DNA of 64,000 nt, taken from contig CATNEN010000001.1 in assembly GCA_950097015.1 (NCBI GenBank), forward strand, positions 27,094,001-27,158,000. The letters are read 5' to 3'. The notes under the pieces were generated by a model that was not told the origin of the DNA, ran no database searches, and was given only the letters and a program-made list of their open reading frames with translations. Within the stretch, counting starts at the first letter, position 1. Each line of letters opens with the position of its first letter. Shown one piece after another: positions 9,950-40,550 of the stretch. Made by a program: the position numbers and the translations under genes. Origin of the DNA: Macrostomum hystrix (lineage: Eukaryota; Animalia; Platyhelminthes).

Positions 9950-10305
9950 GTGAGAAGCACGTGCAACTAGTCCACTTGTTTTGTCCCTCCCCGCCCGACA
10001 ACGCTCCGCTTGTTCAGTTAGGTAGCTTTCGGCGCTACGCGTCTTGAGAGTGCGCCGCTGACAAGGGTGGTCTAGATAGGCGCTTGTTGTCGAATTCAGT
10101 ACGTGCTCTCTTCGGAGACTCCGCCGTCAGGCAGGAGTGCCAACCGATAGGATCTGTCGGGGCAGCGCTGAAAGCAGAGACAACCGGAGCCTCTCGGGAA
10201 GAGTAGGGCGCGGATGTAGGCCAGTTAAGTAAAAATTGTTATATCCAAATTGTTAGACCAGACTTGCTTCTCACTGTGAGCGCGCTATAATTTATTTCCG
10301 TGTGA
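9950..10305 (+). mobile_element. Internal fragment of the 645-1804 LTR family
   Basis: Near-identical to ~1095-1450. Confidence 0.85.
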
Positions 10306-14687: not shown

Positions 14688-14741
14688 AATGCACTCCTAT
14701 CATGGTGCCCGTGGGGTCTTTCAGCAGGTCTATTTCCTTTA

Positions 14742-17700: not shown

Positions 17701-17780
17701 AGTCTACCGCATAATAAGGTTTGTTGAACAGTGCGGTTTTTTAACATGTTATAAACAGTGCGGTAAAATGTCGCTAACGT
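14742..17780 (+). mobile_element. DNA transposon with ~100-bp TIRs and 8-bp TSD, carrying a Ulp1+PHD gene; no transposase seen
   Basis: TIR ACGTTAGCGACATTTTACCGCACTG... is mirrored at the right end; TSD TTCCTTTA on both sides; ~61-bp subterminal tandem repeats at 17460-17710. Confidence 0.85.
16158..17046 (+). CDS. Spliced Ulp1/SENP-like (C48) cysteine protease fused to a PHD finger (exons 16158-16309, 16455-16761, 16922-17046; upstream exons degraded)
   Basis: GT-AG joins keep frame. NHFILVWI...ILDP...QQDCNSCGIF gives the His/Asp/Gln/Cys set; CFLC...WIFCDSC..WCHTVC...WRCDFC is a C4HC3 PHD. Confidence 0.75.
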
Positions 17781-19315
17781 TTCCTTTAGGTGGTAAAAAT
17801 AAATGTTTGGTTGATGTATGGCAGCATACTTTATATCAACCTCCTTCTTGTTGCGACTATGTATGATTTATCAGTGGCTGAGATTTATTGTTGCTGTACG
17901 AAAATTGACTCAAATGCTTTGACGCTTGTCAGTTTATCAGCGAGTATTATTAAGCGAGTATCTTTTTTATTAGAAATTTATGTGGAAAGAGGAAAAGAAA
18001 AACAAAAGCGTATACGTTCGGAAGTGAAAAAGTATTGTATTTTTACAAAATCTAAATTAAAAAGCATACGAACGAGCGACAGCATATAAAAGGCGGACTC
18101 TGGGTAAAAGGTAAATCTCTAGTCTATGGCCAAGGGTGCGAGTACTATGTCTCATTTGACATAGTTATATTAAGACTGAGGCTATGTCAAAATTGTATAT
18201 AACTTTTAATCTAGAATTTTACTAATACTAGCTTTAATACAATATTGTCTAGATTTTTTTACTTTAGTTCTTCTTAGAGCCAAACGGTGATAAACTTCTA
18301 TTCTAAGTATAGCAAGCGTTATGTTAAAAGGGAAAGGACTTTTTTGAACATCCCTCATTGTATATCTTATTGTTATGTTAGGTCATTACTCCCCGGTGGG
18401 ACACCCGCGCCCAACCCGCGCCTTCCCACCAGTGGCCCCGCTGTACGCCCCACTATACGCCCACCCACCGGTGAGCGGCGGGAAGGCGCATAGTGGGGCG
18501 TACAGCGGGGCCACTGGTGGCCACCAGTGGGGGGCGCGGGTTGGGGTGGGGGGTAAATAAAATTCGGGGCATATCCTCAAAGTCTACTGTTAGTAGAAAT
18601 GTTAGTTTGAAATCATGAAGCCAACTCAGTCGTGTAGGAAATTATTTCTAGATTGATTTTCAATTGAATCCGACTCGATAAACTGTGCTCAAATCTATTG
18701 GGACACCGACGACAGCCATATAGTGTACTGACATAGTCAGAGTTAAGATAAAATTTTCTAGGTGACTTTCCAGGTTAATAAGTTCGAGTGGAAATCATTT
18801 GAAATCATGAAACCAACTCAGTCGTGTAGGAAATCATTTCTGTGGGGGAGATCAGTAGGGTGAAAGGGAGATCAGTAGGGTGAGAGGAAGTGTGGTAGTG
18901 AGATGCAGTAGGGTGAGAGGAAGTGTGGTAGTGAGATGCAGCAGAGTGAGAGGAAGTGTGGTAGTGAGATGCAGTATATTTCGCAGGTATCCGAGTTGCA
19001 TTGTATTTACGATTCTCATCCTGGATTCTCATTTTATATTCTCATCCTAGATTCTCATCCTAGTTTTCATCATAGATTCTCATCATAAAATCTCCAGGAA
19101 GAGAAAGCAGCAGCTCCACGACACCAAGCACGTCAAGAAAGACCAACCGGAAGGCCGTAAAAGTGCAGCGTCTACAGGTCTAAACACAATTATGAGCATA
19201 CGAGCACACATATATTTATGAGCACATGAGCACTGAGCACAACTGAATAACGAAAAATAACGAAACAAGTTCACTAAGTTGACTTGTAATGCCGCATGCT
19301 GTTGCCAGGGGCCGG

Positions 19316-19731
19316 TTACCAAGGACGCCACAAAGGCTGGGCTTTATCCTGATGCTGATGATGCTGCTGCTGCTGCTGATGCTGGTCCATCGACTGGCTT
19401 GATTCTTCGTCAGTAGACAAAGCCGACACCGTTGATGAGGCCGAAGACTTGCAGCAGAAGCTTATGGCCGCAGATTGAGTCTTGGCTGAGCCATTCAGCA
19501 GCAGCTCGACAGTCAGCTCCAGGATTTCGGCCTTCTTAGACGCTGAAGCCGGTACGGTTTTATCACTTTGTTGGCCTTCAGCAGCTGTATGAGTTTTTCG
19601 AAGCTGGCATTAATTCTGGCTCTGCGCTGCCGCTCCATCACCTGCTTGCTGATTCTCCGATGCTCCATCAACTCTTCTGGGCGTGTGGTTCGTCTGTTTT
19701 TTTTTTAATTCGGAGCTCGAAATTTTGCCAT
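19316..19731 (-). pseudogene. hes: Second HES copy, frameshifted
   Basis: Paralogue of 2186-2554 ending QHQQQQQHHQHQDKAQPLWRPW*. 1-bp deletion at ~19537 (CCTTCT-TAG vs CCTTCTCTAG) and an altered 5' end. Could be an assembly error. Confidence 0.8.
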
Positions 19732-20507
19732 CGACCGGCCGCCGCCCGAGTTTATAAGTACACCCCCACCGCCAACCCCCGGCTTCCTGTTTCCTCTATC
19801 CCCGCTTCGCTCGTGAAATGAAGTTTTAGCTGTCATGTTCCGCCTAGATTCTCCCAAATGTGCCTTATCTCTAAAAACAAACCTCATAAGTAAACAAGAA
19901 ATATCACCAATTCTTTGAGGACCTCTCAACAATTAGAGTTCACAAAAAGGCTCGTTTCAGCAAGCGTGTGAATTAAAAATGACTGTCAACACAGGTGGAA
20001 AGGCGGCTTTATTCTGAAGTTCTGACGGGCTTAAAGTTCTCTGAGACGTTGTTCCCTTTGAGATTGCGATTGAGAATGTGACAATTAACTGTAATTGCAG
20101 CAGCATTACATAGTTGTAGTTAGAACTTTCACAGTGTACAGCGCTAATTTCCTACGGCATTGTCAGTCTTGACGCCACTTTGGCTTAACAACAGCCAGTC
20201 AAAAAGTATTTTTGCCCTTCAAAAAGCCAGTCACACAGCAATAGTTAGAAAATCAGAAACATATTTCAGACATAGAATTTGAGAATTACGTTTATTTTGG
20301 CTCGAGCAAATAACCTTTTAAGCTGCAATGCACTGCAAACCTTCGTTTTCACTTTCACTTTCACTTCTCCGTTAAACTGATAGGTAATGCACGTGTGAAT
20401 TTCAAACCGATCAACATATTTTCCTCGCTCGCACTCACTCTCTCTATTGAAATTGCAATAGCGGCAATTCAGCCCGGCTGTGTAGTCTATGGTTTTTTAT
20501 ATAGCGA

Positions 20508-20850
20508 TTCTTATGCAGCAAAAGAGCCCGGCCGAGTCCCCTATGCTTTCTTATGCAGCAAAAGAGCCCGACTCAACCCTTAATGCTTTCTTATGCAGCA
20601 AAAGAGCCCGACTCAACCCTTAATGCTTTCTTATGCAGCAAAAGAGCCCGACTCAATCCTTAATGCTTTCTTATGCAGCAAAAGAGCCCGACTCAATCCT
20701 TAATGCTTTCTTATGCAGCAAAAGAGCCCGACTCAATCCTTAATGCTTTCTTATGCAGCAAAAGAGCCCGACTCAATCCTTAATGCTTTCTTATGCAGCA
20801 AAAGAGCCCGACTCAATCCTTAATGCTTTCTTATGCAGCAAAAGAGCCCG
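20508..20850. repeat. Tandem array of a 40-bp unit (TAATGCTTTCTTATGCAGCAAAAGAGCCCGACTCAATCCT), 9 core copies
   Basis: Core TTATGCAGCAAAAGAGCCCG recurs every 40 bp from 20511 to 20831. Confidence 0.95.
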
Positions 20851-21226
20851 CGACCCGCTTTGCTATAATTCTAAATTGATGACTACTGATAGCAGTTGTT
20901 GCAGTGTTAGGTGCGAGATCGGTTGGCTGATTGAATACATATACCAGTCATGATAATTTTGTTTCAAATGGCGCAGTTGTGACAGCAGCGGAATGCAGTT
21001 CGAACATTCTATGAAATGAGTTTCATGCAGGGTATTATCTTACGTTACATGATGACTGCAGCCCCATGCCACTGCCCGCACCTGAGTTAGGGACCCATTT
21101 CGCACTGTGATGATCGATCGAAATTTTTCCAATATACTGTGGGATATATAGTGACTATAGCGGTATTAGCTAGTGTTAGACGCGTTGCTGCTGCACTCAC
21201 GACATTGTTGGGTGCGTAGAACCACG

Positions 21227-21646
21227 ATGAATGCTCATCCTGTGGCGCTGTTCGGCTCGCCGGCCATCGTGGCACTCCTGGCCAGATGCGACATCGCCTG
21301 CCTGGCCCCGTTCCTGGCGCACCGAGGACGACTGGAGCAGCTGACCTGCCTGCAGCGCCACTGCCCGAATGCTGAGCTGAATGCCACCCAGCTACACACC
21401 TTGCTGAAGAGCCTCCTGGACTGGCTGCTACAACACCAGACAGCTGCGGGCTACGAGACTATCCTGGAGGTGACCTGCCTAACAGAGAACGAGGCTTTCG
21501 ACTTGGCCGAGCTGCTAGGCCTGCTGGAGGACACCTGTTCGGAGCTGCAGCACATTCTACACGGGCTGGACTACCGGCGCGGCGTGCAGCAAAGGGCAAG
21601 ACTGCGAGAGTTGTTCCGGAGTCGCGAATATCGAATGGAGCAGTAG
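21227..21646 (+). CDS. Small all-helical protein (139 aa), possibly CARD/death-fold-like
   Basis: GC-rich ORF in AT-rich context, followed by AATAAA at 21723. Leucine pattern LAPFL..RGRL...LLKSLLDWL...GYETILEV...DLAELL. Confidence 0.5.
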   Translation: MNAHPVALFGSPAIVALLARCDIACLAPFLAHRGRLEQLTCLQRHCPNAELNATQLHTLLKSLLDWLLQHQTAAGYETILEVTCLTENEAFDLAELLGLLEDTCSELQHILHGLDYRRGVQQRARLRELFRSREYRMEQ

Positions 21647-21733
21647 CAGCAGCAAAAAGACTTAGCTACTAGACAGTTAAAATAACTTATCCCTGTTTGT
21701 GAACCCAAACCAAGTCTGCACCAATAAAAGAAC

Positions 21734-23759
21734 CAAGGACCACTGTAGTATAACAGGACGGGAAACTCAAAGATCGTGTAAATTTTTAGAAGGCCGATTT
21801 CCTGGAAAAAATACACTGCGGAGATAGGAAAAAGTCATTTTTTCAGCACATAATCAATTATTGCTTTTGATCTGGAGCAAGTTCAAATCCGTTCATCTTA
21901 GTACAGCATGCCCAACATTAAGCTCCGTTGTTTTTATATAGCTTCGTTTATAAAAGTCTTATTTTCACATATATATATTATATAATAGTGTCTTGAATCT
22001 ATATAGACTATAGACTAGCACATTTAATGGCTCAAAATATGATAGCTAAATATTCTTAATTTGGCCTAAATTGTTTGAATTAACAAATTAGCTAAATAGT
22101 TTGGCAAAACTAACAGCCAAAAAAGTTAACTAATATAACAGTAACTATATAGCTATAAAGGTACAACAAATTTCAAAGTGATTTTAATGCAACTGTAGTG
22201 TCGGCATGTTTTATAATGCGTATATTTCTACTTGTAGTAACTTATTCGCGCACGTCAATATTATGAATTATTTTAATGTATCTTATAGGTTAGTTGTTTG
22301 TACATGCGCACCCCAGCCAGGCCTAACACGCGACCGGCCGGTCACCCCTGCTCTACAGCCAAGGCATCAGACTAGCCCTGGTCTGGTGGGCCCAACCAAT
22401 GGGAGGACGGCTAGCCGATTGAAGTGAACCGACTTAAGTGCGACACCCCGAGCCGGGCCAATCAGCAGCCGGTTCGTTAACCGGCAGGGTCGACCTGGCA
22501 GAAGAACAAGCGGCGCGGCCGGCACCCAGGCTTTGATGAGGGCTGGGGCGGGCGCTTGACTATAAAACTGACTATTGCGCTGAAATATTGTTCTCATGTG
22601 ATTCTGGTCTCGCGTTCGACCTTGCTCTTGCTCTTGATCTTGATATTGTTCTCATTCGTGTTACGCATCCTAGTAAATAGATACCGGGACAGGTAAACCG
22701 GTCCAACTAGTTAGTCAAAGAAAACCCCCACACTCAACCCCACGTCAGTAAGTAGCTTGCGCTGAGCTCGGTACGTCTGGCCAACTGCTGACGGAGTGTT
22801 AGATAGGGATTGGCAAGCACGGAAGCACTCTCCATATCGCCGACAATCATCGGTGGGACGCCGTCGAACAGACATTAGGTGTGGCACGATAGAACTATCG
22901 TTGTGCCATAGTGCAGAAGTGCTTGCTGGTCGCCTCGGTTTTATGTTAGGGATTTTGGTTAGGTTTCGCGTTATTTGTCTTGTTTGTTATAGGGACTATC
23001 TGTTTGTCTAGGATTTATTTGTGTTATTTATCGTGTCGTATTATCGAGTAGAGTTCGTGTTTTGTGTTGCGGTTATCGAGATTTTGTTAGTGCGAATTGT
23101 GAATTGGATTGAATTAAGTACAGTACCTGGCAGGGGACGAAAAGAGCGCTGCCAGGGGAATTGATCAGTGATCATAGCTTTCTCTTATTTACTGATTAAC
23201 ACTTAAATATCAGCTGTTTAGCTTGGGATTTGAATCGTCTTGTCTTCGTTATTTTCGAGTTGCGAAAAGGGAATCTCTCACAAAGAGTAGGACACCCGAC
23301 CTCATTTAGGAATCTCAACGTAAAGAGAGACCTAAGTCAAAATATCACACAACCAAGTAAGTTAATTAATTTTTGGCTGTTAGTTTTGCCAAACTATTTA
23401 GCTAATTTGTTAATTCAAACAATTTAGGCCAAATTAAGAATATTTAGCTATCATATTTTGAGCCATTAAATGTGCTAGTCTATAGTCTATATAGATTCAA
23501 GACACTATTATATAGTATATATATGTGAAAATAAGACTTTTATAAACGAAGCTATATAAAAACAACGGAGCTTAATGTTGGGCATGCTGTACTAAGATGA
23601 ACGGATTTGAACTTGCTCCAGATCAAAAGCAATAATTGATTATGTGCTGAAAAAATGACTTTTTCCTATCTCCGCAGTGTATTTTTTCCAGGAAATCGGC
23701 CTTCTAAAAATTTACACGATCTTTGAGTTTCCCGTCCTGTTATACTACAGTGGTCCTTG
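21734..23759. mobile_element. P-element-like foldback MITE (~400-bp inverted arms)
   Basis: Starts CAAGGACCACTG, ends CAGTGGTCCTTG; 8-bp TSD AAAAGAAC; arms 21734-22130 and 23360-23759 are near-perfect reverse complements. Confidence 0.85.
22194..23349 (+). mobile_element. Solo LTR
   Basis: TGTAGTG...TATCACA with 4-bp TSD CAAC; internal TATAAAA at 22561; related to the LTR at 645-1804. Confidence 0.85.
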
Positions 23760-23834
23760 AAAAGAACTAAGGTGGCAGATCCAACTCGATACCGGGAAGT
23801 TTATTTTGGATAACCTAAAAATAGACCGTATAAG

Positions 23835-23967
23835 AGTACAGTTCGTGGTGCGCGCACAATCCCTAAGAAATATATACATAAGACGATGCGAGGTGCTTAT
23901 CTACCTAAAAATAGCAGGCAAGTCCTTATATATTTTTAAGTAATGTGCGCGCACTATGAACTGTACT
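23835..23967. repeat. ~120-130-bp inverted-repeat module (GTACAGT..GTGCGCGCAC...GTGCGCGCACTATGAACTGTAC); other copies at 28616-28732 and, degenerate, 32152-32253
   Basis: Terminal inverted repeats with TA at the borders (MITE-like); in this window seen only inside the YR-Rep element. Confidence 0.7.
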
Positions 23968-24064
23968 TCTCGCTAAAAGTACACACTATCAACTTAACCG
24001 GGATCCGAATTAACCTAATTAAGCACCTATTAATAGAATCTGAGTCGATCAGTTTAAAACTATA

Positions 24065-24102
24065 AGATCAATATGCGCGCACATGTGCGCGCATATTGAT
24101 CT
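24065..24102. other. Perfect 38-bp palindrome
   Basis: AGATCAATATGCGCGCACA|TGTGCGCGCATATTGATCT. Confidence 0.95.
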
Positions 24103-24323
24103 ACTAGAAGTAGTATAGTAACACTGGTACTATCTGCTGCTCATCCTAAATAGCCTGCTCCTCCTCCTTGGGACGTACTTGGGACTCTATTATTAATAGC
24201 GAATCCCACCCTGTTGCACCCAGTTGAAGTTGAGTACCTGGGACTGCGTTGGCTTTCTGCAGCCTGCTCATTTTCATACATCCAAATTTGAACGCGCCTA
24301 TAATTAACCTGCGGAAGCACAGA

Positions 24324-27124
24324 ATGTCGTTCAACTTTTCAACCGGCTGCGACAGCGACGATGAGCGAATTGCGGCCGCGCTGGACGAGTTTGAGAGAGT
24401 TGCCCAAGATAGTAACTCCGCCGGGCCGGTAGCGTCATCAACTCGCCAGCCACCATCACAGCGAAAAAGAAAGAGCGCTCCCTCTCAACGTCGGATTGTC
24501 AATGCAGCAGCCGCAGAATCTACGCCAGGCCCAAAGCGTATATATACTTTCACCCCAGTGCAGACAGCAGCGGTGGCTAACATCAGCAGCGACGCCGACG
24601 ACTTCAGCCTGCTGCCATTGAGCGGTGTCATGCGCCTAAACACTGGAGAGCAGCAGCCTGCCAGTGACCAGATGTCCACAGGCAATCAGCAGCCACCGCC
24701 TGCCAGTATATCGGCCGTCTACGCGCCCATCTCCCACGCGATGGCAGCCTCAGCCTCGACTGCGCCAAAAGGGAGCATGCTGGCTTGGCTCGGAGATCAG
24801 CACCGGAGTGCCAAGAAGGCCACCAGCAGATGGTCATCGCCGGCAGCGATCAGGCACGTCAGGCGACATGCTCCTGCCAACTGCGGCGATGGCGACGGGG
24901 CGGCGTCTGATGCGCCCGACATGTCCACGGCAGCCCTACAGCCTCGCAGCCCCGTCGTCATCGAGATTGAGGACGTCGACGACGAGCGCGCCGATAACGG
25001 CAGGCCGACAGCGGCAACTCGCACAAAGGCGGAGCCATCGGAGCCTAACGAGCAGGAGGCGGCGATGGATAGCGACGACCGCGATGCTCTGCAGGCACTG
25101 CTGGACTACGAGGCGTCCACCGTTGCGCTGTCAGTCGCTGCAGATCCCCCACCGTCGGGCGCTGATGCGGAAATGGAGGAGGCCGCCAGCACGGTGCCGA
25201 AACCGCCTCAAGTCGCGGCCGACCAACAACAGCAGCCAGGGAGGCGGAGATTCCGTTTCCAGCGGCTCGAAACGACTGCTCCCGCTGTTGCTGCTGCTGC
25301 CGACTGCTCCATTGTGGGCGCCATGGTGCCAGACTCGCAGCCCGATGGCCGACGATTAGCAGTCGCCAAGACCACACCGTCTCAGCGTCCGGAAGATGAG
25401 ACGACGGCCTACGTGGTGTCGCCTGGCACAGCGGCATTCGCAGCAGCCGTGGTGGCCGCTATGAATGAGGCCAGCCAGTCCGTCCCTGTCGGCGAGGAGT
25501 GGTGGCGCATATTAACACCACAGCCGCTGCAGCAACAAGAGCAGGTGCAGCTCGAGCGTCCTCCCTCGCTGGTGCCCTTCAGCTACAGTCCGCCGGCGTC
25601 TGCGGCACAGCTTATTCACTTCCTCCAGCAACAGCAGGGGGACAGCGAGGCGAGCGGGAGCGGGGTCGGCGGCGCCAGAGGACAACGAGGCGGCCGAGGG
25701 GTGCGACGGCTGGGCCAAAATCCGCTGCTTAATGCGGCAGCAGCACAGCAGCAGTTCACTGTGACGCGCTCAGTCAGCCGGCCGCTCGCAATGACCGGTG
25801 CTGCTCCTGCGGAGCGACTGCCCGAGGACAGCGGCATTCTGACCGGGCGCCGCTATTTGCACGTCTTCCACATCGACAAGGTGCGCTTCGTCGGTGAGTC
25901 ACTTGCTTTGTTCATAAGCTCTGAATCATATAACCAGCTGCTGGCATCCACTGTTTCCATGCTGCCTACATAAACAGGTCGTGCCAAAGTATATCTGGGC
26001 GAGGCTCTGGAGGCACACTGTGTCGAGCTCGTCCTGGCGTCCAGCCCGGGCCTCTGCGTCGGCATGGATGAGTTCTGCGACCGGCGGCTAGTCGCTGACC
26101 CGCTCTCCGTCGACGAGATGGAGCAACAGCAGCAGCAGCAGCAGCAGCACAGCGAGTATCGGCCACACCGCACTCTGTCCGGCTTCGTGCGCCTGGAGAC
26201 CAACGCGGCCGGCTGGCATTTGTACGAGCTGCTGTTCAGCCTGCTGCCTAGCCGAGACGAGGGACGCTGCTTTGTGGTGCCCGACCGGACCACCCTGACG
26301 CTGTGCGGCGTCCGCTCGCCAGACAGTGTGCTGCGGAGCCTGACGCAGCACGACGGCTACCCGCTGCTGATCGGGATCGGCGCCACGCAGTGCAGCATGC
26401 TGGTGCAAGCGACTCGGTGGGCGCTGTCCTACCCGCTGACTGCCAACCTGCCAGACCAGACTGACGGCTTCTTGTTGGCCCACCAGCAGATGCGCGCCAC
26501 GTTGCTGGGGGTCTTTAGAGACGTGCAGCGCCAGCGCCGGATTCGCAGGGAGCAGCTCGCCGGCTGTTCCGCATGTTCCACCGAGGCTGCCGACATTAGG
26601 AACCTGTGCCCGCTCCGAGAGGCCGTCTGCACAGCCCTTCGCCACCAGTCGGGCGTTGTGTACCTTTACGGGCCGTCGGGAGTCGGCAAGACCACCGCCG
26701 TCGAGCGCCACCTGGGCCAGGAGCGCGTCTTCTGTCCGGTCATCAAGCGCTTCGGTGGCAATGACTTCATGTTCGACGGCCTGGACACCGCGCGCCACTC
26801 CGTCATCTTTCTGGACGAGGTGCGGCCGCACATGTTCGAGGGCGGCGACCTGGAGACCACGCTGTTGCGCCTGCTGAACGGCAACAGCTTCCTGGTCAAT
26901 GCGAAGCACCAGGCGCACGTCTACCTGGACTGGGGCCAACGGCTGGTGATCGCGGCGATGGCGGCCACGCCTCACCTGACGACTACCCGGCTGACGTGCA
27001 GCGGCGCCTGCGCAACGAGGGCAACACGTGCGTCGAGGTCGACCACGACATCGAGGCCTGCCAGGGGGGGTGCCGCCAGCAGCCAATGTTCGGAGCCGCC
27101 GCCGCCAACGCCCAGGTTGAATGA
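24324..27124 (+). CDS. Rep-like protein: long disordered N-terminus, degenerate HUH domain and SF3 helicase (exons 24324-25893 and 25978-27124; 1-bp frameshift at ~26958)
   Basis: Intron GTGAGT...AAACAG joins the two track ORFs in frame. Walker A YLYGPSGVGKTT, Walker B VIFLDE, B' LLRLLNG...VNAKH. Restoring one A gives motif C LVIAAN and arginine finger VQRRL. Confidence 0.8.
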
Positions 27125-28939
27125 GGCCGCCTTTATATGTCTGTCTGTCTGTCTGTCTATTGCTAAATTATTTCATCCCTGCGCCCGTATTTTGTCTCCA
27201 CCACCATCTTAAAGCGGGTTAGCAGATGTGGGCAGGCAGAAATAGCTAGACGGCCAAAATATTACATAACAAAATATTAGTCCTTATTGGGCTAAATAAG
27301 GAATGGCTTTTGGGTTCGGCTGTTTAACAGCACCATATATTATAATCTATACCTGGCACGCAGTTGCAGAAAACGGGGTAGCAGAAATGTGCGCGGACTA
27401 TAGCAATTTATAAAGCATTAGATGGGATTAGTTTAATTGAATTAAATAGCGCGCAGTGTTTTCCTAGTGTTTTTGTTGCTCGTCAGTCTAGATGTGCTAA
27501 GAGATGGAGATGGCATTTATTACTTGTTCTCAGGATCGCTTCTCGCTCTTATCTGATTGCTTTTATTTTGAGTTCTATTATTTCAGAGTCAATATTTTCA
27601 TTTAGCATATGTCGCAGGCTGTCGAAAATTTCAATTGTCCCCATTTTATTGCCGTTCTACTTTTTCTGTACCGGCTCCATTAAACTTTTTAATCCCTCAC
27701 CGCCAACAAATAGTTGTTGTTGTTGTTGCTGTTGCTGCTCTCCAACAAGTTAGATAGATGGGCAGCTAGAATAATTAACAATGATTGCCTACCTTGTGGA
27801 GCGCAGATAAAAATCACTTTAAACGCAGTCGTCGTCGCTGGGGTCGCAGCTGGAGCGGAGCAATCGGAACAGTGTAGGGGGCAGTCGAAACGAAATAGTA
27901 GATCACGAAGGAGCTGATTTGGTTGATTAATAGAGTTGGTATTGAAAATCAAAGTGTAGCTTGGGAACGATCGAGTCTGTCTTAATCGATTGGCATAGAG
28001 AAATCAATCAGTGCGCGAGCTAGCTCTCTTTGACTTGTGTGCTCAAGATGAGCAATACAGTCCTTCCTGATAAAATTTAGTTTCTATGTGCCTAAGCTTT
28101 GTCTATGTCTTGAGTTTATCGCATTCCTTTATTAATAGTAGTCTAAATATAATTTTACACACACGCAGTTGTTATGTGCTTATTTGGGCGCTATTTGTGT
28201 TATTATAATTTATAATAATTGAGCTATAATAATTTGAGTAAGTATACTAGTATATGGTATGAAAAGCTGACTGCATGCATTAATATGTGAATAAAGGACA
28301 TAAATCAAGAAAAAGCATTCAATCAAGAACTACATGTAGTAGACGGTACGTATGCATATGAAAAATCGGCAATTAACTAATTTAAGATGAAAATCAACAA
28401 GCGGCATCTGCAATAACAAGCAATTAAAATACATGTAGTAATGATGTGTGCATTAAAATACAATTTGGATGGACGCAAAAAGCTATACATATAATATAGT
28501 AGTACGATTTAATAACGGCAATTAACAGCTGCATATAGTGCTACTCAGTTATTTATAGATTTTATATAAGAAACTAAAATTTCAAATTCGCGCTAAATTC
28601 TACGAAATTCAATGTGTACAGTCTGTAGTGCGCGCACATTCCCTAAAAAATATATAAGGCATGTCAGCTCTAATTTTAGAACGACGATCCTTATATATTT
28701 TTTAAGTATTGTGCGCGCACTATGAACTGTACCTAAATCTAAAATTAAATTGCTTACTTGACTACTATAAGTAGAGCAGTTAGCAGCATTTGTTTAGTAA
28801 TTGTCAGATAAATCTATGGCTAATTAAATAATTCTATCAACAAAAACAATAAAGTATAATATTATCAACGGGAGTAATCAGTCAATCAATACAATCAATA
28901 TTCTTAACTATAGCATATAATATCAATTATAATAACATT

Positions 28940-28977
28940 AGCGTATAAAGCGCGCACATGTGCGCGCTTTATACGCT
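28940..28977. other. Perfect 38-bp palindrome with the same 18-bp core
   Basis: AGCGTATAAAGCGCGCACA|TGTGCGCGCTTTATACGCT. Confidence 0.95.
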
Positions 28978-29207
28978 GCAGTAACATGCAGTCAAACGAA
29001 TTCAATTATCCCTCCCTCGAAGGCCTGTGCATGTTTTCTCTGCGTGTTTTCTCTCTGTCCCGGCCCCCTTTATCTGCCCCACGGTGTTTTTCACTCACTA
29101 TTTAAATATTTAATAATATTTTATATTATTAATATAATATAAATTAAATATTTTATATAAAATCTTAAATAAAGCAGGCAGACAGACAGGCGGGCAGGCA
29201 GGGCGAA

Positions 29208-32068
29208 TCAATCAAAATTATGCTCCGCCACTGAGTGCAGCCGCCGTCGCTTTCCGGCCACCGGTCTACCGTGCAGGACTGCGTCGGCTCGTTGGGTGCT
29301 CGCCGCCACCTCCCCACTTCCACCAGCCAGGCTGCTGATGAGTCCCTGGGTCGGCGGCCTAACTATTGGTCGCATCTCTGCGTCACCTGATGGCACCACA
29401 AACCGGCGGACAATATCGCGGCTGCGAATTACTGTGCCCATCTCGGTGGCCATCTGGGCATTGTGCCCATAATTGTACCGGATGACAGCTGCAGATGTGC
29501 CGTGCGCTCTGGCGAACATATCCAGCTGCTCCGGCTCCATCATGAGCACTACGGCACAGAGGGTGCGACGCCAGTGCGTGGCCACATAGTGCCGACCCAG
29601 TACTCGCTGCCCGCCTGCGCTGATCATGCGGCTCATTGCCGACTGGCTGTACACACCGCCGAACACATCAATGAAGACGGTCGGCGACTCCGGTTGCTCG
29701 ATGCCGCGAGCAGCAAGCGACGGCACGATATATTCGTCGTGCAGGCGCAGCAAGGCCTCGCAGAATAGATCCGGCAGCACCATCCTGGCTGGGTCGCCGG
29801 AGTGTCCGACCTTGTGCGGCACTTCACGCAGCGGCAGGACGAGATGCGAGTGCCCAGCCAGATCGGCAGCGGACGGCCCGCTCTCCCCATCTACACTTTG
29901 CGTGTGTTGGCGGAACAGCTGTTTTTGGTCGGCCGACGTGTTTCGCCGAACCGAACGGTCGACCAGGTGTCGCCGACGGATGTAGATCCACGGCAGGAGT
30001 CGCAGGGGCTGCTCAATGCTGCAGTAGAACAGCATCTCCTGCACAATCCTCCGCAGACAAACCATCCGGCGACTGAAGGCACCATCATCTGCTTCGCCGT
30101 TGTCTTTGGTGACATCAGCGATGCCATCAGCGACCACACCTGCTGCCTGCATGCCCCATTCGCCGTCGACTGGCAGCAAAGTCCAGCTGTGCCTTTGTAG
30201 CATGGCAAAAAAACGATCACGGCGGGCGAACACGGCATCGACCTCGTCCACGTTGACGTAGGTGTCCATGAAGGCCACCTGCCGCTCGTTGTGGCCAAGC
30301 TTGTAGACTGCCTGCATAGTATAAATGTGGTTGCGTTTACTTATAGTAGATAGCAGCACGAAACCAAATAGAACTAACTGTCATTAATGCAGCTGCTGTG
30401 CAGCTAGCTCACCTGCTGGATGGCGCGGACGTTGCCGAACTCGCCGCGAGCCTGCTGCACCACGCTGCTAAGGCGGGCGATGAGAGCCTGCTCAGCCGCC
30501 AGCGGGTTGTTGGCCTTCTGCGCCAACTGCATTCTCCAGCAGACGCCACTGCCGACAGAGTCGACGTCCTCAATAGCAGGGCGCTCGGTGTCAGGCGAGG
30601 GTGAGTCGATGCTGCAGAACAGCTCGGCTTCGCGCAAGCCAACGGCGGCCATGATGGCATTGGCGCCTCGCAGGCCCCTCACGCGTAGCCAGCCCTCCAT
30701 GCAGCGGCAGATGCTGACAAGCTCCTGGCACTTGCGCGCAGCAGTCGACTGGGCCAGCTGCATGGCGTCACCGACTGTTTCAGCGCTGAAGCAGTCCTGC
30801 ACCCTGTCCGGCTGAAGCAGCAGGTCTGCAAGCGATATGCCCGCTCGCTGCCAGGTGCGTAGAAGCGTCGAGCTCACGGACCTGCTGATGTCGCGCCAAC
30901 GCTGCTGGTGGCACAAGTTGGCCGCAATCCTGGCCCGCGATGGGTCCCTCCACCATAGCTCCCGCAGGCGTTCCACCGTTGCGGAGATGCTGGGCCGGTC
31001 ACCCAACGGCTGCAGCAGCTCTGGTGGCACGGGCTTCGCAGGTGGCGACGTGCGAAAGTGTCGACAGCGCGGACCGCGACGCTGTTGCTGCTGCTTCTGA
31101 TCGGCTGTCGACGCTTCCTGCTGCAGTTCTGCTCCGAAGATGGACTTTTGAAGCCGGTCGAATTCGGCACTGGCCAGTTTTATCTTCAACGCAGCCCACC
31201 TTGCTGCAGCTGCTCGACGCTGCCTCGGCGGAGTAGCTGCCAGCTTCACTAGCGGCCTCTGTGCAGCCGACACCACAGCCGATGACGTGCTGGGACGATT
31301 AAGCGCCGACTTAGTGGCCTGCACCGCCAACTGCAGACAGGCAGCCGAAGAGGAAGACTCTGCTGCCACCGTATGGACTGTCGACAGAGTCCGCATTCTG
31401 ATGCTGGTTCCGGGCAGTAGCTCCTGCAAGCCGACATCGTCATCTCCATCGTCAGCGTCCTCCTGTGAGGACATTAGCAGCAGCGGCGCAGTCGGGTCAA
31501 ATAGGCGTCGCCGGACGGCTGGACGGCTGGCTGACGACAGCCGAGCACTGGCCGCTGACTGTCGACCGTAAACGGACGGCGCGGCGATGCTGTAGAGCTC
31601 GGCCAACAGAGACCCAGCCTCGTATTCAGCTGGTTCTGCCTCTGAAGGCTGCTGCGGAGGCGGTGGTGGCATCTGCTGCGGAGGCGGTGGTGGCATCTGC
31701 TGCGGAGGCGGTGGCTGCTGGTGTTCCACAGCAACGGTAGCAACAACAGCTGGCACTGCTGGACAACTGTGCTGCCTTGCTGTCCTACGCAGCACCTTGC
31801 CGCAGGCTGGGCACGCATGTACATGCTCAGTGTTGGCTGAGCTGCGCGTGTGGGTGCTGCACGTCAGGCAGAGCCAGACCATCTGGGCACGCTGCTTGGC
31901 TGACGCCGCTGCCCAAGATGCCTCGGACGGCCGCACCTTGACTGGGGCATCATCGAGTCGGAATTGGCGCACAGCCTCCTCCGCGTGCCTCCTCAGGAAG
32001 TGGCGCTTCGGATGCGTCTGCGGTCTGCCGTCGCCACAGAAGATGCAGCACGACTCGTTGTCTGTCAT
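29208..32068 (-). CDS. Tyrosine recombinase (~919 aa) with N-terminal Cys/His zinc-finger-like region (exons 32068-30413 and 30311-29208)
   Basis: A 101-bp phase-0 GTGAG...ATGCAG intron joins the two track ORFs. Catalytic pattern EQPLR (R), PHKVG (K), THWRR (HxxR), ARAHGTSAAVIRYNYGH (Y). The start could be up to 63 nt further upstream. Confidence 0.8.
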
Positions 32069-33198
32069 AGCTATTGTTATTACAAATTGATGCAGTGCCA
32101 TATAGGTGTATGAACTGAATTCAGTATACATGCTCAATCAACACATGCTATGTACAGTCCGTTGTGCGTGCATCTAAATAAATATATATATGCCCCTATA
32201 TCCCATTATGGAATACACTATTTTAAGTGTTGTGCGCGCACATTGTCCCGTACTGTTGTCATCGCTGCTGCATTTATATTCGATTGAGTGCTGCGTTGAG
32301 CACATAAATCACTTATTTTTATGTTGTACCTAACAACAACAACAACAACAACAACATCCTGGCTGTAAAAATTATAAGCCTCTGAATCATTTATAAATTT
32401 TAAAAACATAATTTTTCATTTGCAATGTAGTACAATCAGCTCAGACATTCGATTTTCCAGTGAACAGCACACCCACCCCCTCCAACTCGATCTTCCTCCC
32501 TCAAAAGCAGTGCCGAGCCAGCCAGACAGACCTGCAGATGGAAAGAGAGACGACTTCGATCGTCTTCAGTCTATGGCCACAGGGGTGACATTATCGATTG
32601 GTTAAAGCAGACACACTGCTTCTCTTTTTCAAGGCAGAGCAGTGGCCTTCCACACCCTTTTACCATAGACTATGAATTTAGAGACAGGGCCGCCCCCTTT
32701 CGCTTTCGAAGGTTTAAAGAAAGGGTGGCAAGCAAAGTAGCAGTCTTTTAGTTTTAGCCCGGCCCAACTGCTCGATCGAACTGCAGCTTACAGTCAAATA
32801 TAATTCAGAGATTCATCCACAATTCGAATCAACAGTCTGCCTTCTATTTGCTTGGACTATATTAAAACAGGCTACAGATATAATATCGACAGAGAGCCAC
32901 AGGATCTATTATTATGTCAACAGCAAGCATTAGGATCTAATATATTTCTAGGCAGCTCAGAACTGCATAACACTTACAGAGATTACTAATATATTATAAT
33001 TATAGAGAACTGCATGCGCTATTATCTATTAGATTAACAGACCGATTGTTATATGTATACAAGTACTAATTGAAGGGCCTATTATATATACAAAGACTAA
33101 TCTGAGGGCCTATTATATTAACACAGCTTGTAATGCATATTTATGAACAGATACTTATATGGCCTATTTAAAATACACAGCCTTTTTCTTATTTGCAG

Positions 33199-33810
33199 CG
33201 CAACAGACAGCATCAGCAGAAGCATCAGCAGAAGCAACCGACAGCATCAGCAGAAGCATCAGCAGTAGCAGCAGTAGCAGCTCAGTAGCAGCTCAACAGC
33301 TCTAGCAGCATCAGTACCAGCAGCCAGCCCCATCTGCCCGTGCCCACTTCGAGGTGCAGCAGAAGCAGCAGTACCAGCAGCCAACCCCGTCCGCCTGTGC
33401 CCACTTCGAGGTGAGATAAAAATTAAATTGTACAGCTGGATAGCATTAGTTAGCCTCAGCAACTATATTCGAGTAGACTTTAGCGTCGAAATTATATTCT
33501 AATTGCTTTTTTCCATGCTCATCCTCAGCTCAGTGCAGCTAAACCGGCCGGCACCAGCCAGCAGCATCAGTAGCCGAAGCCAGCCCCGTCCGCCTGTGCC
33601 CATTTGCCAAGCAGCAGCAGTAGCAGCAATAGCAGCACAAGCAGCAGAAGCAGCAGAAGCAGCAGAAGCAGCAGTACCAGCAGCCAGCCCCCGTCCGCCT
33701 GTGCCCACTTCGAGGTGAGATAAATATTCAATTGTACAGCTGGATAGCATTAGTTAGCCTCTGCGAAATATAATCGAGTAGACTTTAGCATAGAAATTAT
33801 ATTCTAATTG
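33199..33810 (+). pseudogene. Degenerate, internally duplicated Gln-rich exons (QYQQPxPSAxAHFE|GT)
   Basis: Acceptor TTTGCAG; donors GAG|GTGAGA repeated at ~33411 and ~33715; CAG>TAG stops. Confidence 0.35.
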
Positions 33811-36390
33811 CCTTTCCGTGTTTTTTGCTTGTCGTCGCTGCCGCCGCCAGTCAAAGTTAAATCAAATTATTGAATGTCATAAGACATAGAGTCTGTGTCA
33901 ATCAGTGTCAATCAGTCAGTCAATCGATCTCGAACGAAACAATACATTCAGTATACTGTACACTGCTGCTGCTCTAATGCAATATCAATAACGAGAGAAA
34001 ATGAGTGCTTGCGAGCAAAGCCATAGAGGAAGCGTGGTCTTCCCAGTTCTAAAAATAGCTGCAGAGCTAGCGCGTGAATTTAAATACACTGTTTACGTTG
34101 TTATAAACGAGAGAAGATGAAAGTGATTTTAGGAAGGCCTTTATGTTCATTTTTTGTCTTAATCTGACTTCCGAATAAATAAATCTAAATAGTAAGCTAA
34201 ATGGAGCAGAACTGAACTGCTGCGCACTGAAATATAAGCGCTATACGAAACTTGCTATGTTTGCGTTTCAATGAGGCCCAAATGGCTCTCCGAAAAGACC
34301 GAATAATGAGTCGAAAAAAGCTGGGCAAAAATCTGAAAATTAGGAAAGTATATTGACAAACTTGACACTGAAATTAATTAAACAAGACGAAATAAATACA
34401 AAGACTCATGAGATTTTTTCCTGCCATTTCTTCACGAAACATAGGAAAAGTTATTTTGCAAAGTTAATTATTGTTTCAAGCATTTATAATTGCTAGGAAT
34501 TTCAGCCATCTCATAATTATTTGAGTTGGCATTTGTATTTAGAGTATATGTTATATGAATATAGCAGCAAAGTGTGTTCTTATGAAGTTTGTGTGTTTTT
34601 AATTATTTATGCACTGTAGCTACAGTTTTTACAGAAGGCACATTTTTTACTATTTTACCTTTAAGTCTCTTATAGCAGCTCAAGTTCTGTGTTTGTCTAA
34701 ATTGGCAAAAATTGAAATGTCAGCTAGGGATAAAAAGAGGGCCTCAGTTTAATCAATATTCATAAAGGCATTCAGAACAAAATTAGCTTATTCACAGTTA
34801 GTCAATCATATCTTTTTGGTTGGCACTCAGCAGGCTGTTGTTGATTGTTGGCCATTCAGCTTCAACACCAGACTCAGATTCTTGGGACTCCTTGTCCTGT
34901 TATATAGGCTCTCCTTGTCCTGTTAGGTGTGAGAGGTAAGACAGTTAGTTTGCTGTTTGTATTTAGATCTATAGCTAGGCAAGAAGGGGCAGAATGCTGA
35001 TAAGAGATGATAGAGGAATGTTGCTCATAGGTTAAATAGGACCACAATTGAGGGAATTACACAGGGCTGGTATTAACTATGTACGGGGCTTGAGCATAAA
35101 TGTATAGTGTCGGGCTAACAATAAAAATGATTATGTACTCAAGCACTTACCATAGCCTTTAATCATTTGTGATTAGTTCTCATATGCACTTAGCTATGCC
35201 ATGAGAGTGAAGACAACCAGATGCCACAATTCCAGCTAGTGAGCCAGTGTGATAAAGACCTGGTAAAATAAAGTTGATAAATAAATAGAGGAAATTTCAT
35301 AGCAAAACTGTACCAGACCAAATAACTCTAGTGTACACTAGGATCACTTATATTGCTTGAAGAAACAAGAAGAGAAGAGGAGAAAAAAGGACAGGAGAGA
35401 AGAGGAGAGGAAAGAAAAGCAGAGGAAAGGAGGGGAGAGGGGGAGAGGAGGGGGGAGAGGAGAGGAGAAGAGGAGGGGAGAGAATTTCATAAACAGCAGT
35501 TTCAAGGCAAACTACTGCTCATGCAGTATCCAAACCAATAGCTCAAGGCAAACTACTGTGCATGCATTATCAAAACTAAGAGCTCAAGCAACCAGCAATT
35601 GTGTGTTAGGTATCTTGGGCTGGGTTGGGCTAACACTAAAAATGATTATGTACTCAAGCACTTACCATAGCCTTTAATCATGTGATTAGTTCTCATATGC
35701 CCTTAGCTATGCCATGAGAGTGAAGACAACCAGATGCCACAATTCCAGCTAGTGGGCCAGTATGATAAAAACCTGGTAAAATAAAGTTGATAAATAAATA
35801 GTCATTATAAAGAAATTTCATAGCAAAGTTATATAACTGTACCAGACCAAATAACTCTAGTGTACACTGGGATCAATTGTTATTGCTTTGCAGGAGCTAA
35901 CCAACAATTTTTGGTTGGGTATCTAGCAAACACTTTACAACAAATGATTAGCCAAGCCTTACCAGTTCTCAGATGCCAGCCTGAAGATAGCAAGCAAAGC
36001 CATCATTCCAGCTTGTGTGATAAGGACCAGTTAAGATGTACTAAGCCTCACTGCAGTTTGCTAAGTTTTTACCATCCTTTTAACTGCTTTCACTTTCTTA
36101 AATCCTTAATTCCTTTCAGGCTCTTTAATTATTTGTAGCCACATTTCACTTTTCTTTCAAGCTTTCAGCTGAATTGCCTCTGACATCATCCATGAGCAAT
36201 GAGCTGCAGCTCAGGAGCATTGAGCTAAAAGCTAGGCTTCTCTAGCTAGTGAAACCAAGCTATACACTTTTACCATCCTTTAACTACCTTAAATCCATTT
36301 GAACATTTTAAACACCCTTTGATACACTTAATTTACTCTTATTCACTTCTACTTTTGCTTTAACTTTACTTATTTACTTTTCAATTTCCA

Positions 36391-36960: not shown

Positions 36961-39564
36961 GGTTTGTCTAAGCTACCTATTTGTGATACCTTTATTCCTG
37001 AATTCTTAATCCTTAATCGTTAATTCTTTAAATAAGCGCTAGTAGTAAAATTATACCCGTTTGCAGGTGTAAGTTTTCATTGAGTCTGGTAAAACAATAT
37101 TTACCTTTAGCCATTATAGCACCATTTATTAAAATGCGATTGTCACACTACAATGCTAATGCAATATTACAACGTAGCAAAATGTACTCACATTCAATAT
37201 GATTGTAGCCATAATGTCATATGTCGTGTCTTGCCGTGTTCGTGTTTAACCAGAAAATTGCATGAGCCATCCTCCAAGCTTTATAGCAAGTTTATCTGCA
37301 AATTTAAAGAAGCAGATAGCAACTGCGTACGAAGACAAACCCCTCACTCCACATTCATGCTGTCCAATAACAAGCTGCTAACACACCTCGAAACCTCCCA
37401 CTTCGTCATTTCAGATCGCGCATTTGATTTTGTTGCTTCGAATTTGAATTTGAAGATTTTGGAATACATCTTTGCTTGTTGTCTTCCTTTATTTCACTCA
37501 TATTTATTTATTAGCTTGATGCACAGCCTAAATGTTTAGCTTCTTAGCTTTAGCTTAGCATGATTACCAACATATTTATCGAGCACTCCTTGCTTCGTGT
37601 TCCTGAACTTGCTTTGCTTGCCTGCTTTGCTACAATTCGTAGCAAAAGTACATTTTTTCATTTCTACTAACATTTGTACTAAGCTGCTACTAACATTTAC
37701 ACTCCGACCCTTAAGCTGGCTAACACTTAAAAGATTCGCATGCTTACCATCTGACCTCTGTGTCCCTGTAGCTAAGAGTTTGCTACAATTCGTAGCAAAA
37801 GTTCATTTTTTCATTTCAACTAACATTTATACTAAGCTGCTACTAACATTTACACTCCGACTCTTAAGCTAGCTCACTTAAAAGATTCGCATGCTTCCCA
37901 TCTGATTACAGACAATCGTTATAGACAAAGATAAATATGTAAATTGGTTTTGAAACATTCCATATTTTTTCCAGACGTTCTCCATGAACACCTGACGCCT
38001 GGTACACGGTCAGGCGTGTCAAGAAACGGAAGCTGCGGATGACATTGATATTAGTGTCTATTCTAATTCAATCAGCTACTCAGCGTCGAGTAGCAGTTGG
38101 CCCAGCATCCCGGCGAGCTGTATCTGGCCGAGTTTAGCAGGTTAGATAACGATCAGCGACCTTCACGGACTCATGTCATGTCATTGGAGTTCCACGGCTG
38201 CGCTCGCAACAAGGTTGAATAATCTTTTTGTTTTGTTTGTTGTAGTTTATGAAATAATGTGCAGCAACAATTAGTTTATTTATAGTATTTATAAGTAGCA
38301 TTTATATAGCATTTATAAGTACTTGTAGTTATCTCATACTTTTATAGGAAACAGTCTGTTTTAATTACATGTCTTCAAAATCAAGGTTTAATTACAGATG
38401 ATAAGTCATGCATGGGGAATATGAGAAAACACGAGAAAACAGAACAAAACATATCCGTAAGAAAAAATAGTTTTCGTGAGTGAAGTAACGCAACTGAGAA
38501 TCGGACAATCCGTACTTTAATTCTGAGTCATTGTCTGGATCATGTGATTTCTAGGGTATTGTTGGGTAATGTGCATCCCCGCTTCACTCGTGAAATGAAT
38601 TCTGTTCTAGAATTCCTATCTGTGGTTTTAGATGTCATGTTCAGCCTAGATTCCCCCAAATGTGCCTTATCTAAAAACAAACCTCATAAGCAAACAAGGT
38701 AGATTATTTTCTTCGAGGACCTCTCAACAATTAGCTAGTTCTCAAAAAAAACTCCTCGCAACGAGCGTGTGAATTAAAAAATGACTGCCAACACAGGTGT
38801 ATTTATTCTAGCACAGGTAGTGTTACACTTAAAATAAAAAAGCAAGAAAAACAAAACCCAATTCATATTTAATACTGCAGTACACTGCTAGCTGGACATT
38901 TCAGATCTCATACTTGTTTACATGAGTGAAGTAGCGCAACTGACAATCAGACAATCCGTGATGTAATTCTGAGTCATCGTCTATTTGTCTGGATCATGTG
39001 ATTTCTAGGGCAACGTAGGGATTTCTGAGGTATTAATTAAATTATGGGATTTCTGATGACGAATAGAAAATTTACATGAGCATGTTCAATTTTATTTATT
39101 TAAAGTGATTGCCGCTTTATATATACGGCGTGCATACAACAAAATAAAACATACGTATGAAAAGTACATGGTTGTCGTCGGTGTCCCAATAGATTTGAGC
39201 ACAGTTTATCGGGTCGGATTCAATTGAAAATCAATCTAGAAATGATTTCCTGCACGACTGAGTTGGCTTCATGATTTCAAATGATTTCCACTCGAACTTA
39301 TTAACCTGGAAAGTCACCTAGAAAATTTTATCTTGACTCTGACTATGTCTTGTACTATATGGCTGTCGTCGGTGTCCCAATTGATTTGAGCACAGTTTAT
39401 CGGGTCGGATTCAATTGAAAATCAATCTAGAAATGATTTGCTACACGACTGAGTTGGCTTCATGATTTCAAATGATTTCCACTCGAACTTATTAACCTGG
39501 AAAGTCACCTAGAAAATTTTATCTTAACTCTGACTATGTCAGTACTATATGTCTATAAATATAT

Positions 39565-40550
39565 GCTCACCCTACTGCTCTCCCTCTCACCCTACTGCTC
39601 TCCCTCACACCCTACTGCTCTCCCTCTCACCCTACTGCTCTCCCTCTCACCCTACTGCTCTCCCTCTCACTCTACTGCTCTCCCTCTCACCCTACTGCTC
39701 TCCCTCTCACTCTACTGCTCTGCCTCTCACCCTACTGCTCTCCCTCTGACCCTACTGATCTCCCTCTCACCCTACTAATCTCCCTCTCAACCTACTGCTC
39801 TCCCTCTCACCCTACTGCTCTCCCTCTCACCCTACTGCTCTCCCTCTCACCCTACTGCTCTCCCTCTCACCCTACTGCCTTCCCTCTCACCCTACTGCTC
39901 TCCCTCTCACCCTTCTGCTCTCCCTCTCACCCTACTGATCTCCCTCTCACCCTACTGCTCTCCCTCTCACCCTACTGCTCTCCCTCTCACCCTACTGCTC
40001 TCCCTCTCACCCTACTGATCTCCCTCTCACCCTATTTTTAATTCTTGTCCAGTAAATGCTTTTTAGCAGCTGTATAATTTTCAGCTTTTTTACAGCTACA
40101 AAGATCCCCAGTTGACAATGATCTCTCAGTTGACAATGATCCCCCAGTTGACAATGACACCCCAGTTGACAATCATCCCCCAGTTGACAATCATTCCCCA
40201 GTTGACAATGATCCCCCAGTTGACCATGATCCCTCAGTTGACAATCATCCCCCAGTTGACAATCATTCCCCAGTTGACAATTATCCCCCAGTTGACCATG
40301 ATCCCTCAGTTGACAATCATCCCCCCAGTTGACAATCATCCCCCAGTTGACAATTATCCTCCAGTTGAACATGATCCCCCAGTTGACCAGGATCCTCCAT
40401 TGGATGATGACTACCCATATCGATGATGATCCCCAGTTGACAATGATCCCCTATTCGATGATGATCCCCCAGTTGATGATGATCCCCCAGTTGACAATGA
40501 TCCCCCAGTTGACAATGATCCCCCAGTTGACAATTATCCCCCAGTTGAAA
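39565..40550. repeat. Expanded 20-bp and 18-bp subterminal minisatellites
   Basis: Same units as 9195-9720 at higher copy number. Confidence 0.95.

Follow-up and report, generated by a model that had tools for sequence, protein, structure and literature searches.

What kind of mobile DNA has split a HES-like gene unit in the flatworm Macrostomum hystrix, and by what means might it move and multiply? The question is raised by an insertion of 13,946 nt (20411-34356) that was found by self-comparison of a 64,000-nt stretch of contig CATNEN010000001.1; this whole stretch is called the window here, and all positions follow its numbering. Between two short inverted ends the insertion carries two convergent genes, one for a predicted tyrosine recombinase and one for a predicted superfamily 3 (SF3) helicase. 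The answer that we put forward, with a little less than an even chance of being right, is a capsid-less mobile element: its recombinase would excise it as a circle, its SF3 helicase would drive copying by the host, and the circle would be re-inserted at a site resembling the element's ends.

The window holds two copies of the HES-like gene unit, and the insertion splits the second of them. Its flanks, 20093-20418 and 34359-34434, align at 86% and 96% identity, respectively, to the unbroken sequence 3040-3453 of the paralogous unit, where the empty target site occupies 3369-3380; the empty junction is also found in contigs of the public sequencing runs X1 and X2 (loose ends at 34362). The HES-like gene itself (19316-19670), named by eye from its WRPW end and helix motif and without a Pfam match, lies about 750 nt from the insertion, which is upstream of it. 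An earlier reading of this DNA from its letters (the sequence-only reading) had described an insertion of about 13.9 kb in the second unit that is absent at the paralogous site, or about 11.9 kb without a nested element, and both figures are borne out, the latter by a computed length of 11,912 nt after subtraction of the nested element and its 8-nt duplication. The same is true of the 15-nt imperfect inverted ends, the left one (20411-20425, plus strand) and the right one (34342-34356, minus strand; junction contig 33751-34391 in run X1) being complementary at 13 of 15 positions. The statement that the element has no target-site duplication was too strong. A degenerate 7-nt direct repeat is present at the junctions (20409-20415 and 34355-34361, both on the plus strand), its left copy probably acting as the crossover core, and each copy differs by one letter from the sequence that stands once in the empty site (3369-3375). 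At the right junction 5 nt of the empty site have been lost, and the left arm, over its first 8 nt, agrees with the empty site itself at seven positions. Because the junction repeats and the left arm are so similar to the empty site, the target resembles the ends of the element, and the exact termini, judged from one site, are uncertain by a few bases. The mobility of the element is likewise shown by this single filled and empty pair.

The recombinase gene runs on the minus strand from 32068 to 29208 and comprises 919 codons interrupted by one 101-nt GT-AG intron in phase 0 (30412-30312). Exon 1 (30413-32068) encodes two zinc-finger-like motifs, a long linker and a helical region, and exon 2 (29208-30311) encodes a tyrosine-recombinase catalytic domain in which the R-K-R-Y residues are kept and both histidine positions are replaced. 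In the ESM Atlas its first match reached 0.97, and 16 of 30 matches were to Phage_integrase (PF00589). A seven-sequence profile of the family compared with one of 56 phage Xer-like integrases gave P=58.6%, E=9.6e-5 and a score of 36.1, where 40 column shuffles reached at most 22.1, and the alignment brings box II and the tyrosine into register. Among the alignment rows that cover each catalytic residue, the first arginine and the lysine are present in four of four, the second arginine and the tyrosine in six of six; the first histidine of HxxR is variable and the second is a threonine in 6/6 rows; a eukaryotic recombinase is described that stays active with its histidine substituted (PMC10104507). 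The minus-strand gene is, as far as sequence comparison goes, a divergent tyrosine recombinase with predicted activity, from a family that has no Pfam match (nine members scanned). No match was found in PHROGs, none of significance in PDB sequence searches with the proteins of the element, and a single one (E=6) by tblastn against phages; tblastn of the window revealed no second copy.

A HMMER scan of 1.84 billion representative proteins returned seven relatives of the recombinase. Five are singletons on contigs of 0.6-2.4 kb (JGI, Logan, ENA), and two clusters hold seven records from Macrostomum lignano (P0005, P0006 and P0008-P0012), which UniRef names 'Ras-GEF domain-containing' or 'C2H2-type' and which are members of the recombinase family. 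One of these, P0011 (1,084 aa), matches exon 2 with 25% identity (E=1e-25) and, at E=1e-4, the beginning of exon 1 with its zinc fingers; since it covers both exons it supports the intron and shows the layout to be conserved; the intron is skipped in no contig of X1, X2, X4 or X5. P0005, P0006, P0008-10 and P0012 were left out of the family profiles as near-copies of P0011. The family is widespread. It has so far gone unrecognised and its database entries are misnamed, which holds even under a cautious reading. Word-based protein searches recovered none of 7,996 candidates with exon 2 at near lengths, missing the known relatives too, and two of 8,000 with the family alignment, both known already. 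DNA-pattern scans built on exact short motifs gave 0/64 and 0/300, and here as well the known relatives were missed.

The helicase gene occupies 24324-27124 of the plus strand, with about 900 codons and one in-phase GT-AG intron of 84 nt (25894-25977). Exon 1 (24324-25893) contributes 523 codons of low complexity with basic clusters, two similar acidic helices and no family match, and exon 2 (25978-27124) a 230-residue domain followed by the SF3 helicase, with Walker A at 26670-26693 and a break in the frame near 26,965. The acidic helices, of 15 residues each (24351-24395 and 25068-25112; residues 10 and 249), may be docking sites for host factors. One contig of X4 and none of X1, X2 and X5 skips the intron. 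This is likely to reflect splicing, the library types of the runs not being on record, and the depth of 84 of the spliced contig was not taken as expression, 262 of its 1,097 letters being listed on the stretch. A tally of silent and replacement differences (8 vs 10 among 18 coding differences, from 40/392 rows) was drawn from a biased sample and was not used.

All of the SF3 motifs, namely Walker A, B, B', C and the arginine finger, are present, motif C and the finger having been identified by eye and the finger lying past the frame break. The best ESM Atlas score was 0.95, with RNA_helicase, CRESS and pCRESS clusters, the match to PF00910 (E=0.02) was below the cut-off, and PHROGs yielded P-loop matches only. 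The helicase scored 17.5 bits with a 34-sequence CRESS profile (shuffle maximum 2.4), 6.3 bits with papillomavirus E1 (2.6), a score carried by motifs B-C, and 0.3 bits with D5 (1.5). The sequences kept per profile were 38 of 124 for CRESS, 22 of 28 for a viral type that we label OLV11, 56 of 100 for the Xer-like integrases, 28 of 60 for E1 and 66 of 89 for D5, loci without a long enough frame being dropped, and 20 of 64 for TelN after thinning. It is supported by these sequence comparisons that the C-terminal part of the plus-strand gene is an SF3 helicase, on the side of CRESS rather than of D5 and the Polinton-like viruses (PLVs). No HUH nickase was detected by Pfam, by a 38-sequence CRESS nuclease profile (-2.0, within 200 shuffles) or by the 28-sequence E1 profile. 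In the 230 residues before the helicase the profile of the E1 origin-binding domain scored -1.7 bits, within shuffles, and no HUH or YxxxK motif and no catalytic tyrosine was found by eye or by profile. Because an HUH motif and a catalytic tyrosine went undetected there, replication would be nick-free and E1-like rather than rolling-circle. The layout is reminiscent of a Rep whose active site is dead, a likeness that does not count as a result, and the domain may have a dead HUH fold.

Do the two genes belong together? The main evidence that they form one unit comes from the relatedness of three palindromic blocks and from the concentration of a core motif within the element. The blocks are related hairpins of 100-130 nt with common arms and differing spacers. 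Block A (23836-23966) stands about 360 nt before the start of the helicase gene, block C (32152-32254) about 85 nt before the start of the recombinase gene, and block B (28616-28732), with whose arms those of both are in common, between the two genes. Perfect 38-nt palindromes follow block A (palindrome a, 24065-24102) and block B (palindrome b, 28940-28977); they have the same core and different outer arms, they are the only perfect palindromes longer than 20 nt in the 64-kb window, and 14 of the 15 window matches to their core 8-mer are inside the element. The genes are also alike in the GC content of third codon positions (GC3, 0.67-0.86 for both) and in having a single intron of GTGAG style. 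A composite, in which independent recombinase and helicase elements and palindromic miniature inverted-repeat elements came to be nested at one spot, would suit a window crowded with repeats, the one nested element that is certain and the occurrence in X5 and X1 of a palindrome like block B in another sequence context. We nevertheless regard it as quite improbable: neither of the genes nor any of blocks A-C was noticed to be bordered by inner ends or target duplications, that of the nested element being the one internal target duplication noticed in the element, and the blocks, with their common arms and differing spacers, sit at gene starts. The core motif is all but confined to the element. 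The block B variant (28676-28788) has unrelated sequence on both sides in X5 (depth 73), with identical letters in X1 (depth 69), and is either a remoter member of the family or a repeat that occurs by itself.

The same palindromes invite another thought, that of a hairpin-telomere replicon whose recombinase acts as a telomere resolvase, cutting the 38-nt palindromes and releasing linear DNA with closed ends. The two have a common core and different, self-matched outer arms and flank the helicase gene, and 2/30 Atlas matches of the recombinase are to ResT/TelK clusters (0.93); the 16 ordinary integrases among these matches argue against it, and we rate this explanation as very improbable. A comparison of the family profile with 20 TelN-like proteins returned P=1.6%, its positive control failing likewise.

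What the element does not encode bears on whether it is a virus. Neither its open reading frames nor Pfam and PHROGs revealed a capsid, ATPase, polymerase or primase gene within it, and the longest frames outside the two genes, of 158, 123, 104 and 95 codons, match no family. With both ends present, these missing genes are not explained by an assembly cut-off. The copy is likely to be capsid-less, and a decayed or multi-exon capsid gene may remain hidden. PLVs combine a recombinase and an SF3 helicase in elements of 14-20 kb with inverted repeats, as here (PMC4642659, PMC11296320, 10.64898/2026.06.19.733378), and in insect PLVs the pair lies near the inverted repeats as an 'end module' (PMC11296320). 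Some virophage groups use nickases like the circovirus Rep, and replicative modules may move alone (10.64898/2026.10.13.758929). Endogenous nimaviruses of animals have C2H2-bearing and sometimes multi-exon recombinases with site-specific integration, a likeness by description (PMC10871703); these are carried by giant viruses, unlike the element. On such grounds the insertion might go back to an endogenous virus with a capsid, be it a PLV, a group 2 Maverick or similar, and be a reduced form or a satellite of it whose structural module is lost or borrowed. We consider this unlikely. Both ends are in place with no frame above 158 codons outside the two genes, the helicase is not D5-like and no primase or PolA domain was matched, the introns and spliced cargo suggest long residence in the nucleus, and the recombinase was not matched by the 22-sequence OLV11-type profile (P=0.2%, within shuffles), which is narrow, motif-picked and carries our own label; that profile reached P=87.9% with the Xer-like one. 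Membership in OLV11 had been suspected by eye, from the motif order and a Gly-Thr at box III like that of a supplement sequence, and the profile did not bear it out. Membership among PLVs and Polintons is rejected on the lack of capsid, ATPase, pPolB and primase and on the D5 score, which stays below its shuffle maximum. Where MELD viruses have a recombinase or SF3 gene, genes for a virion are present as well (PMC8502044, PMC11071296).

Several further features lie within the element. An array of 8.6 x 40 nt, 97% alike, occupies 20508-20850 near the left end (plus strand). An 8-nt motif occurs in every array unit (20526-20806), at 20472, about 60 nt inside the left end, and inverted at 34319, about 35 nt inside the right end; it has eight more matches elsewhere in the element and so may be due to chance. 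Downstream of the array a leucine-rich frame of 139 codons (21227-21646, plus strand; GC3 0.76) matches no family. The nested element is non-autonomous and measures 2,026 nt (21734-23759); its inverted ends are 390 nt long, and the target duplication at its borders (21726-21733 and 23760-23767) is of 8 nt. A contig of run X2 is without it (loose end at 23773); it is, by the look of its sequence, a later insertion into the main element, and we take it to be hAT-like from its hallmarks. A small gene on the minus strand (27380-28003), either decayed or spliced, was recognised by eye as cysteine-rich and helical with poly-Q; its longest frame has 104 codons and no Pfam match. A low-complexity unit of repeated exons on the plus strand (33200-33720) appears to be spliced, with a GT-AG joint from 33408 to 33527 in one X5 contig and a matching loose end in X4. 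An Rfam scan gave seven sub-threshold matches, six of them hairpin miRNA models, and none was accepted.

The content of the element as foreseen by the sequence-only reading can now be judged. A tyrosine recombinase gene of about 900 aa with one intron is confirmed by the Atlas and Xer-like matches and the retained R-K-R-Y residues, as are palindromes (two perfect and three hairpin blocks) and the lack of a capsid or pPolB gene in this copy; an iteron-like array is there, its role being a candidate one. Its Rep-SF3 gene survives in part, as a CRESS-like SF3 helicase half, but an HUH nickase went undetected and the frame is interrupted. Of the two convergent intron-containing genes of about 900 aa, both exist with their introns but that of the helicase is not intact.

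How might such an element work? The predicted recombinase would join the two ends and excise the element as a circle, on which the predicted SF3 helicase would open an origin for copying by host polymerases. The helicase would load, without nicking, perhaps at the palindromic blocks or at the 40-nt array, with blocks A, B and C as possible shared promoter and origin sites, and the recombinase would re-insert the circle at a host site resembling the element ends. That the recombinase both excises and integrates the element we infer from the geometry of its ends, which in a head-to-tail joint would make two 11-nt arms around an 8-nt core that the target resembles; known recombinase sites have arms of 11-13 nt round 6-8 nt (PMC3212892), and direct repeats may arise from likeness between end and target, as in the integration of Starships at look-alike sites (PMC10104507). 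Episomal copying is an inferred step as well. The copy in the window would rely on another copy for the helicase step, its own helicase frame being interrupted.

The copies seen in the sequencing runs bear on this proposal. Contigs of X1, X2, X4 and X5 were compared over 23770-35100. The main X1 contigs among those listed are at least 99% identical to the window bar short indels, at depths of 460-611; the right junction, joined to the window's own flank, agrees with them at a depth of 522, and the flank has 976. X1 also contains diverged or deleted versions, at depths of 70-100, and in X4 such versions have 94-96% identity. Roughly one in two host units apparently carries the element, and other versions exist besides.

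A number of observations weigh against the element being a mobile replicon of the kind proposed. The recombinase and the helicase are known together from one locus only. The host unit is itself repeated, as the flank depth of 976 indicates, so that the extra copies of the element may have been spread passively, and near-identical M. lignano records may represent redundant haplotypes instead of separate insertions. Neither a second flank at the right end nor a circle junction was seen among 23 of 103 loose ends and the 11 joints listed, in contigs, which drop rare forms. The likeness of the helicase to CRESS comes mostly from Walker A, and masking it left 1.0 bit. The domain before the helicase matches no family, and single-sequence folds of the two proteins reached pLDDT values of 32.3 and 33.2. 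Searches for relatives of the helicase returned none of 7,993 candidates by the word-based method at longer lengths and 0/7 viral and 0/98 metagenome sequences by DNA-pattern scans with exact short motifs, methods that had also missed recombinase relatives, and tblastn against plasmids gave no match. Finally, a break near 26,965 disrupts the helicase frame after motif C and before the arginine finger, and the last 50 codons are in another frame. The X1 and X4 contigs differ from the window by an indel at this point, and the break may therefore be local to the window copy.

The broken frame, together with the contrast between a recombinase that has relatives and a helicase for which none was found, would also fit a transposon that cuts itself out and re-inserts in the manner of Cryptons or Starships, the recombinase being its sole working part and the helicase a captured viral cargo that takes no part in copying. 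A further gene, for instance one for a C48 peptidase, is known from Cryptons (PMC3212892), and the short direct repeats at the ends are compatible with such a transposon. Against this, the helicase gene has a palindromic block of its own upstream, the same GC3 and intron style as its partner, a spliced transcript-like contig and every SF3 motif; the break may be confined to one copy, and the searches that found no helicase relatives were insensitive word-based ones that overlooked those of the recombinase too. Cargo status is in our judgement unlikely, though not far-fetched.

Membership of these groups can be judged from their parts. Cryptons resemble the element in that they depend for mobility on a tyrosine recombinase and no other enzyme, end in short direct repeats and have a proposed circular intermediate (PMC3212892). 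The element has a recombinase, no reverse transcriptase and short degenerate terminal direct repeats, as a Crypton should. Cryptons are described without terminal inverted repeats, and 'helicase' is a word absent from that paper (PMC3212892), whereas the element has 15-nt inverted ends and an SF3 helicase, two points on which it falls outside the group, and a recombinase that Pfam does not match. Starships are, like the element, large, recombinase-driven and cargo-bearing, with short inverted and direct repeats and targets that resemble their ends (PMC10104507). They are fungal and have a DUF3435 'Captain' as first gene, whereas in the element the recombinase is internal and a helicase is present; the recombinase has no DUF3435 match, and membership was rejected on this ground. 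The lack of a reverse transcriptase or RNase H frame in the element sets aside DIRS, Ngaro and VIPER.

On the side of the helicase, motifs and spacing are closest to CRESS-DNA viruses, pCRESS plasmids and RepE1 cressviruses, with a weaker likeness to E1 in motifs B-C (PMC10288648, PMC11071296). The element differs from these by the undetected HUH nickase, the lack of a capsid, a 523-residue N-terminal extension, an intron and the partner recombinase; as neither HUH nickase nor capsid gene was detected, it was not placed among CRESS viruses or HUH transposases. Replitrons and Helitrons are eukaryotic transposons built, like the element, from Rep-related genes, but an HUH nuclease transposes them, any helicase they have is of the SF1B type, and they are described without a tyrosine recombinase (PMC10288648). 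The gene content fits no tested family, but a single locus has yielded the gene pair, and it is therefore about an even question whether this is a new kind of recombinase-mobilised element. The yeast 2-micron plasmid and prokaryotic integrative plasmids are replicons with a tyrosine recombinase that are copied by host polymerases, like the proposed circle; the former is not known to integrate or to have a helicase, and the latter are not known to have introns. A search of the literature by listings and the openings of abstracts found no capsid-less element with a recombinase and an SF3 helicase, Repbase, Dfam and most subscription journals lying outside that search, and neither PMC10680173 nor PMC12801592 yielded anything on it.

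The surroundings of the element are themselves rich in repeats. The HES-like units look mobile or amplified, unit 2 being bounded by long inverted repeats (18403-18970 and 39165-40760) and unit 1 lying between two 360-nt direct repeats of 97% identity (1095-1454 and 9952-10309) that run into a Gypsy-type integrase frame. A 3-kb element (14741-17781) has 103-nt inverted ends and 61-nt subterminal tandem repeats, and its exon pieces, judged by eye, may encode a Ulp1/C48 protease and a PHD finger. At 44992-48904 there are two long frames, of 471 and 646 codons, without a Pfam match at E 0.01; the second presumably contains a motif of EnSpm/Mirage-type transposases. Fragments of a Helitron-type Pif1 helicase (Pfam Pif1_2B_dom; 12721-13269 and 62758-63531) are unrelated to the element.

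If the proposal of a capsid-less, recombinase-moved and helicase-copied element is carried to its furthest point, the insertion could represent an order of mobile DNA that is new for animals, namely a nuclear plasmid that integrates, with a zinc-finger tyrosine recombinase and a nickase-dead SF3 helicase of CRESS descent, replicating in the manner of E1 as a double-stranded circle, with no capsid or polymerase and with spliceosomal introns. We offer this tentatively, as something that has a fair amount against it and is rather more apt to fail than to hold. The companion idea, that the element stands without a capsid midway from CRESS viruses to the small DNA tumour viruses and forms at least two distant families of its kind in flatworms, with environmental relatives, is put forward in an equally guarded way. 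Eukaryotic DNA transposons fall into a small number of major groups, each of which is defined by its enzymes, and a tyrosine recombinase with an SF3 helicase but no capsid, polymerase or HUH nuclease fits none of those tested. A circular intermediate has long been proposed for the recombinase transposons of eukaryotes, and the host group includes a laboratory flatworm. Should the gene pair prove to be conserved, the element would be an animal counterpart of the prokaryotic integrative plasmids, would provide a new site-specific recombinase that is adapted to eukaryotes and needs only a short target, and would bear on the origin of the nick-free helicases of papilloma- and polyomaviruses from the Reps of CRESS viruses.

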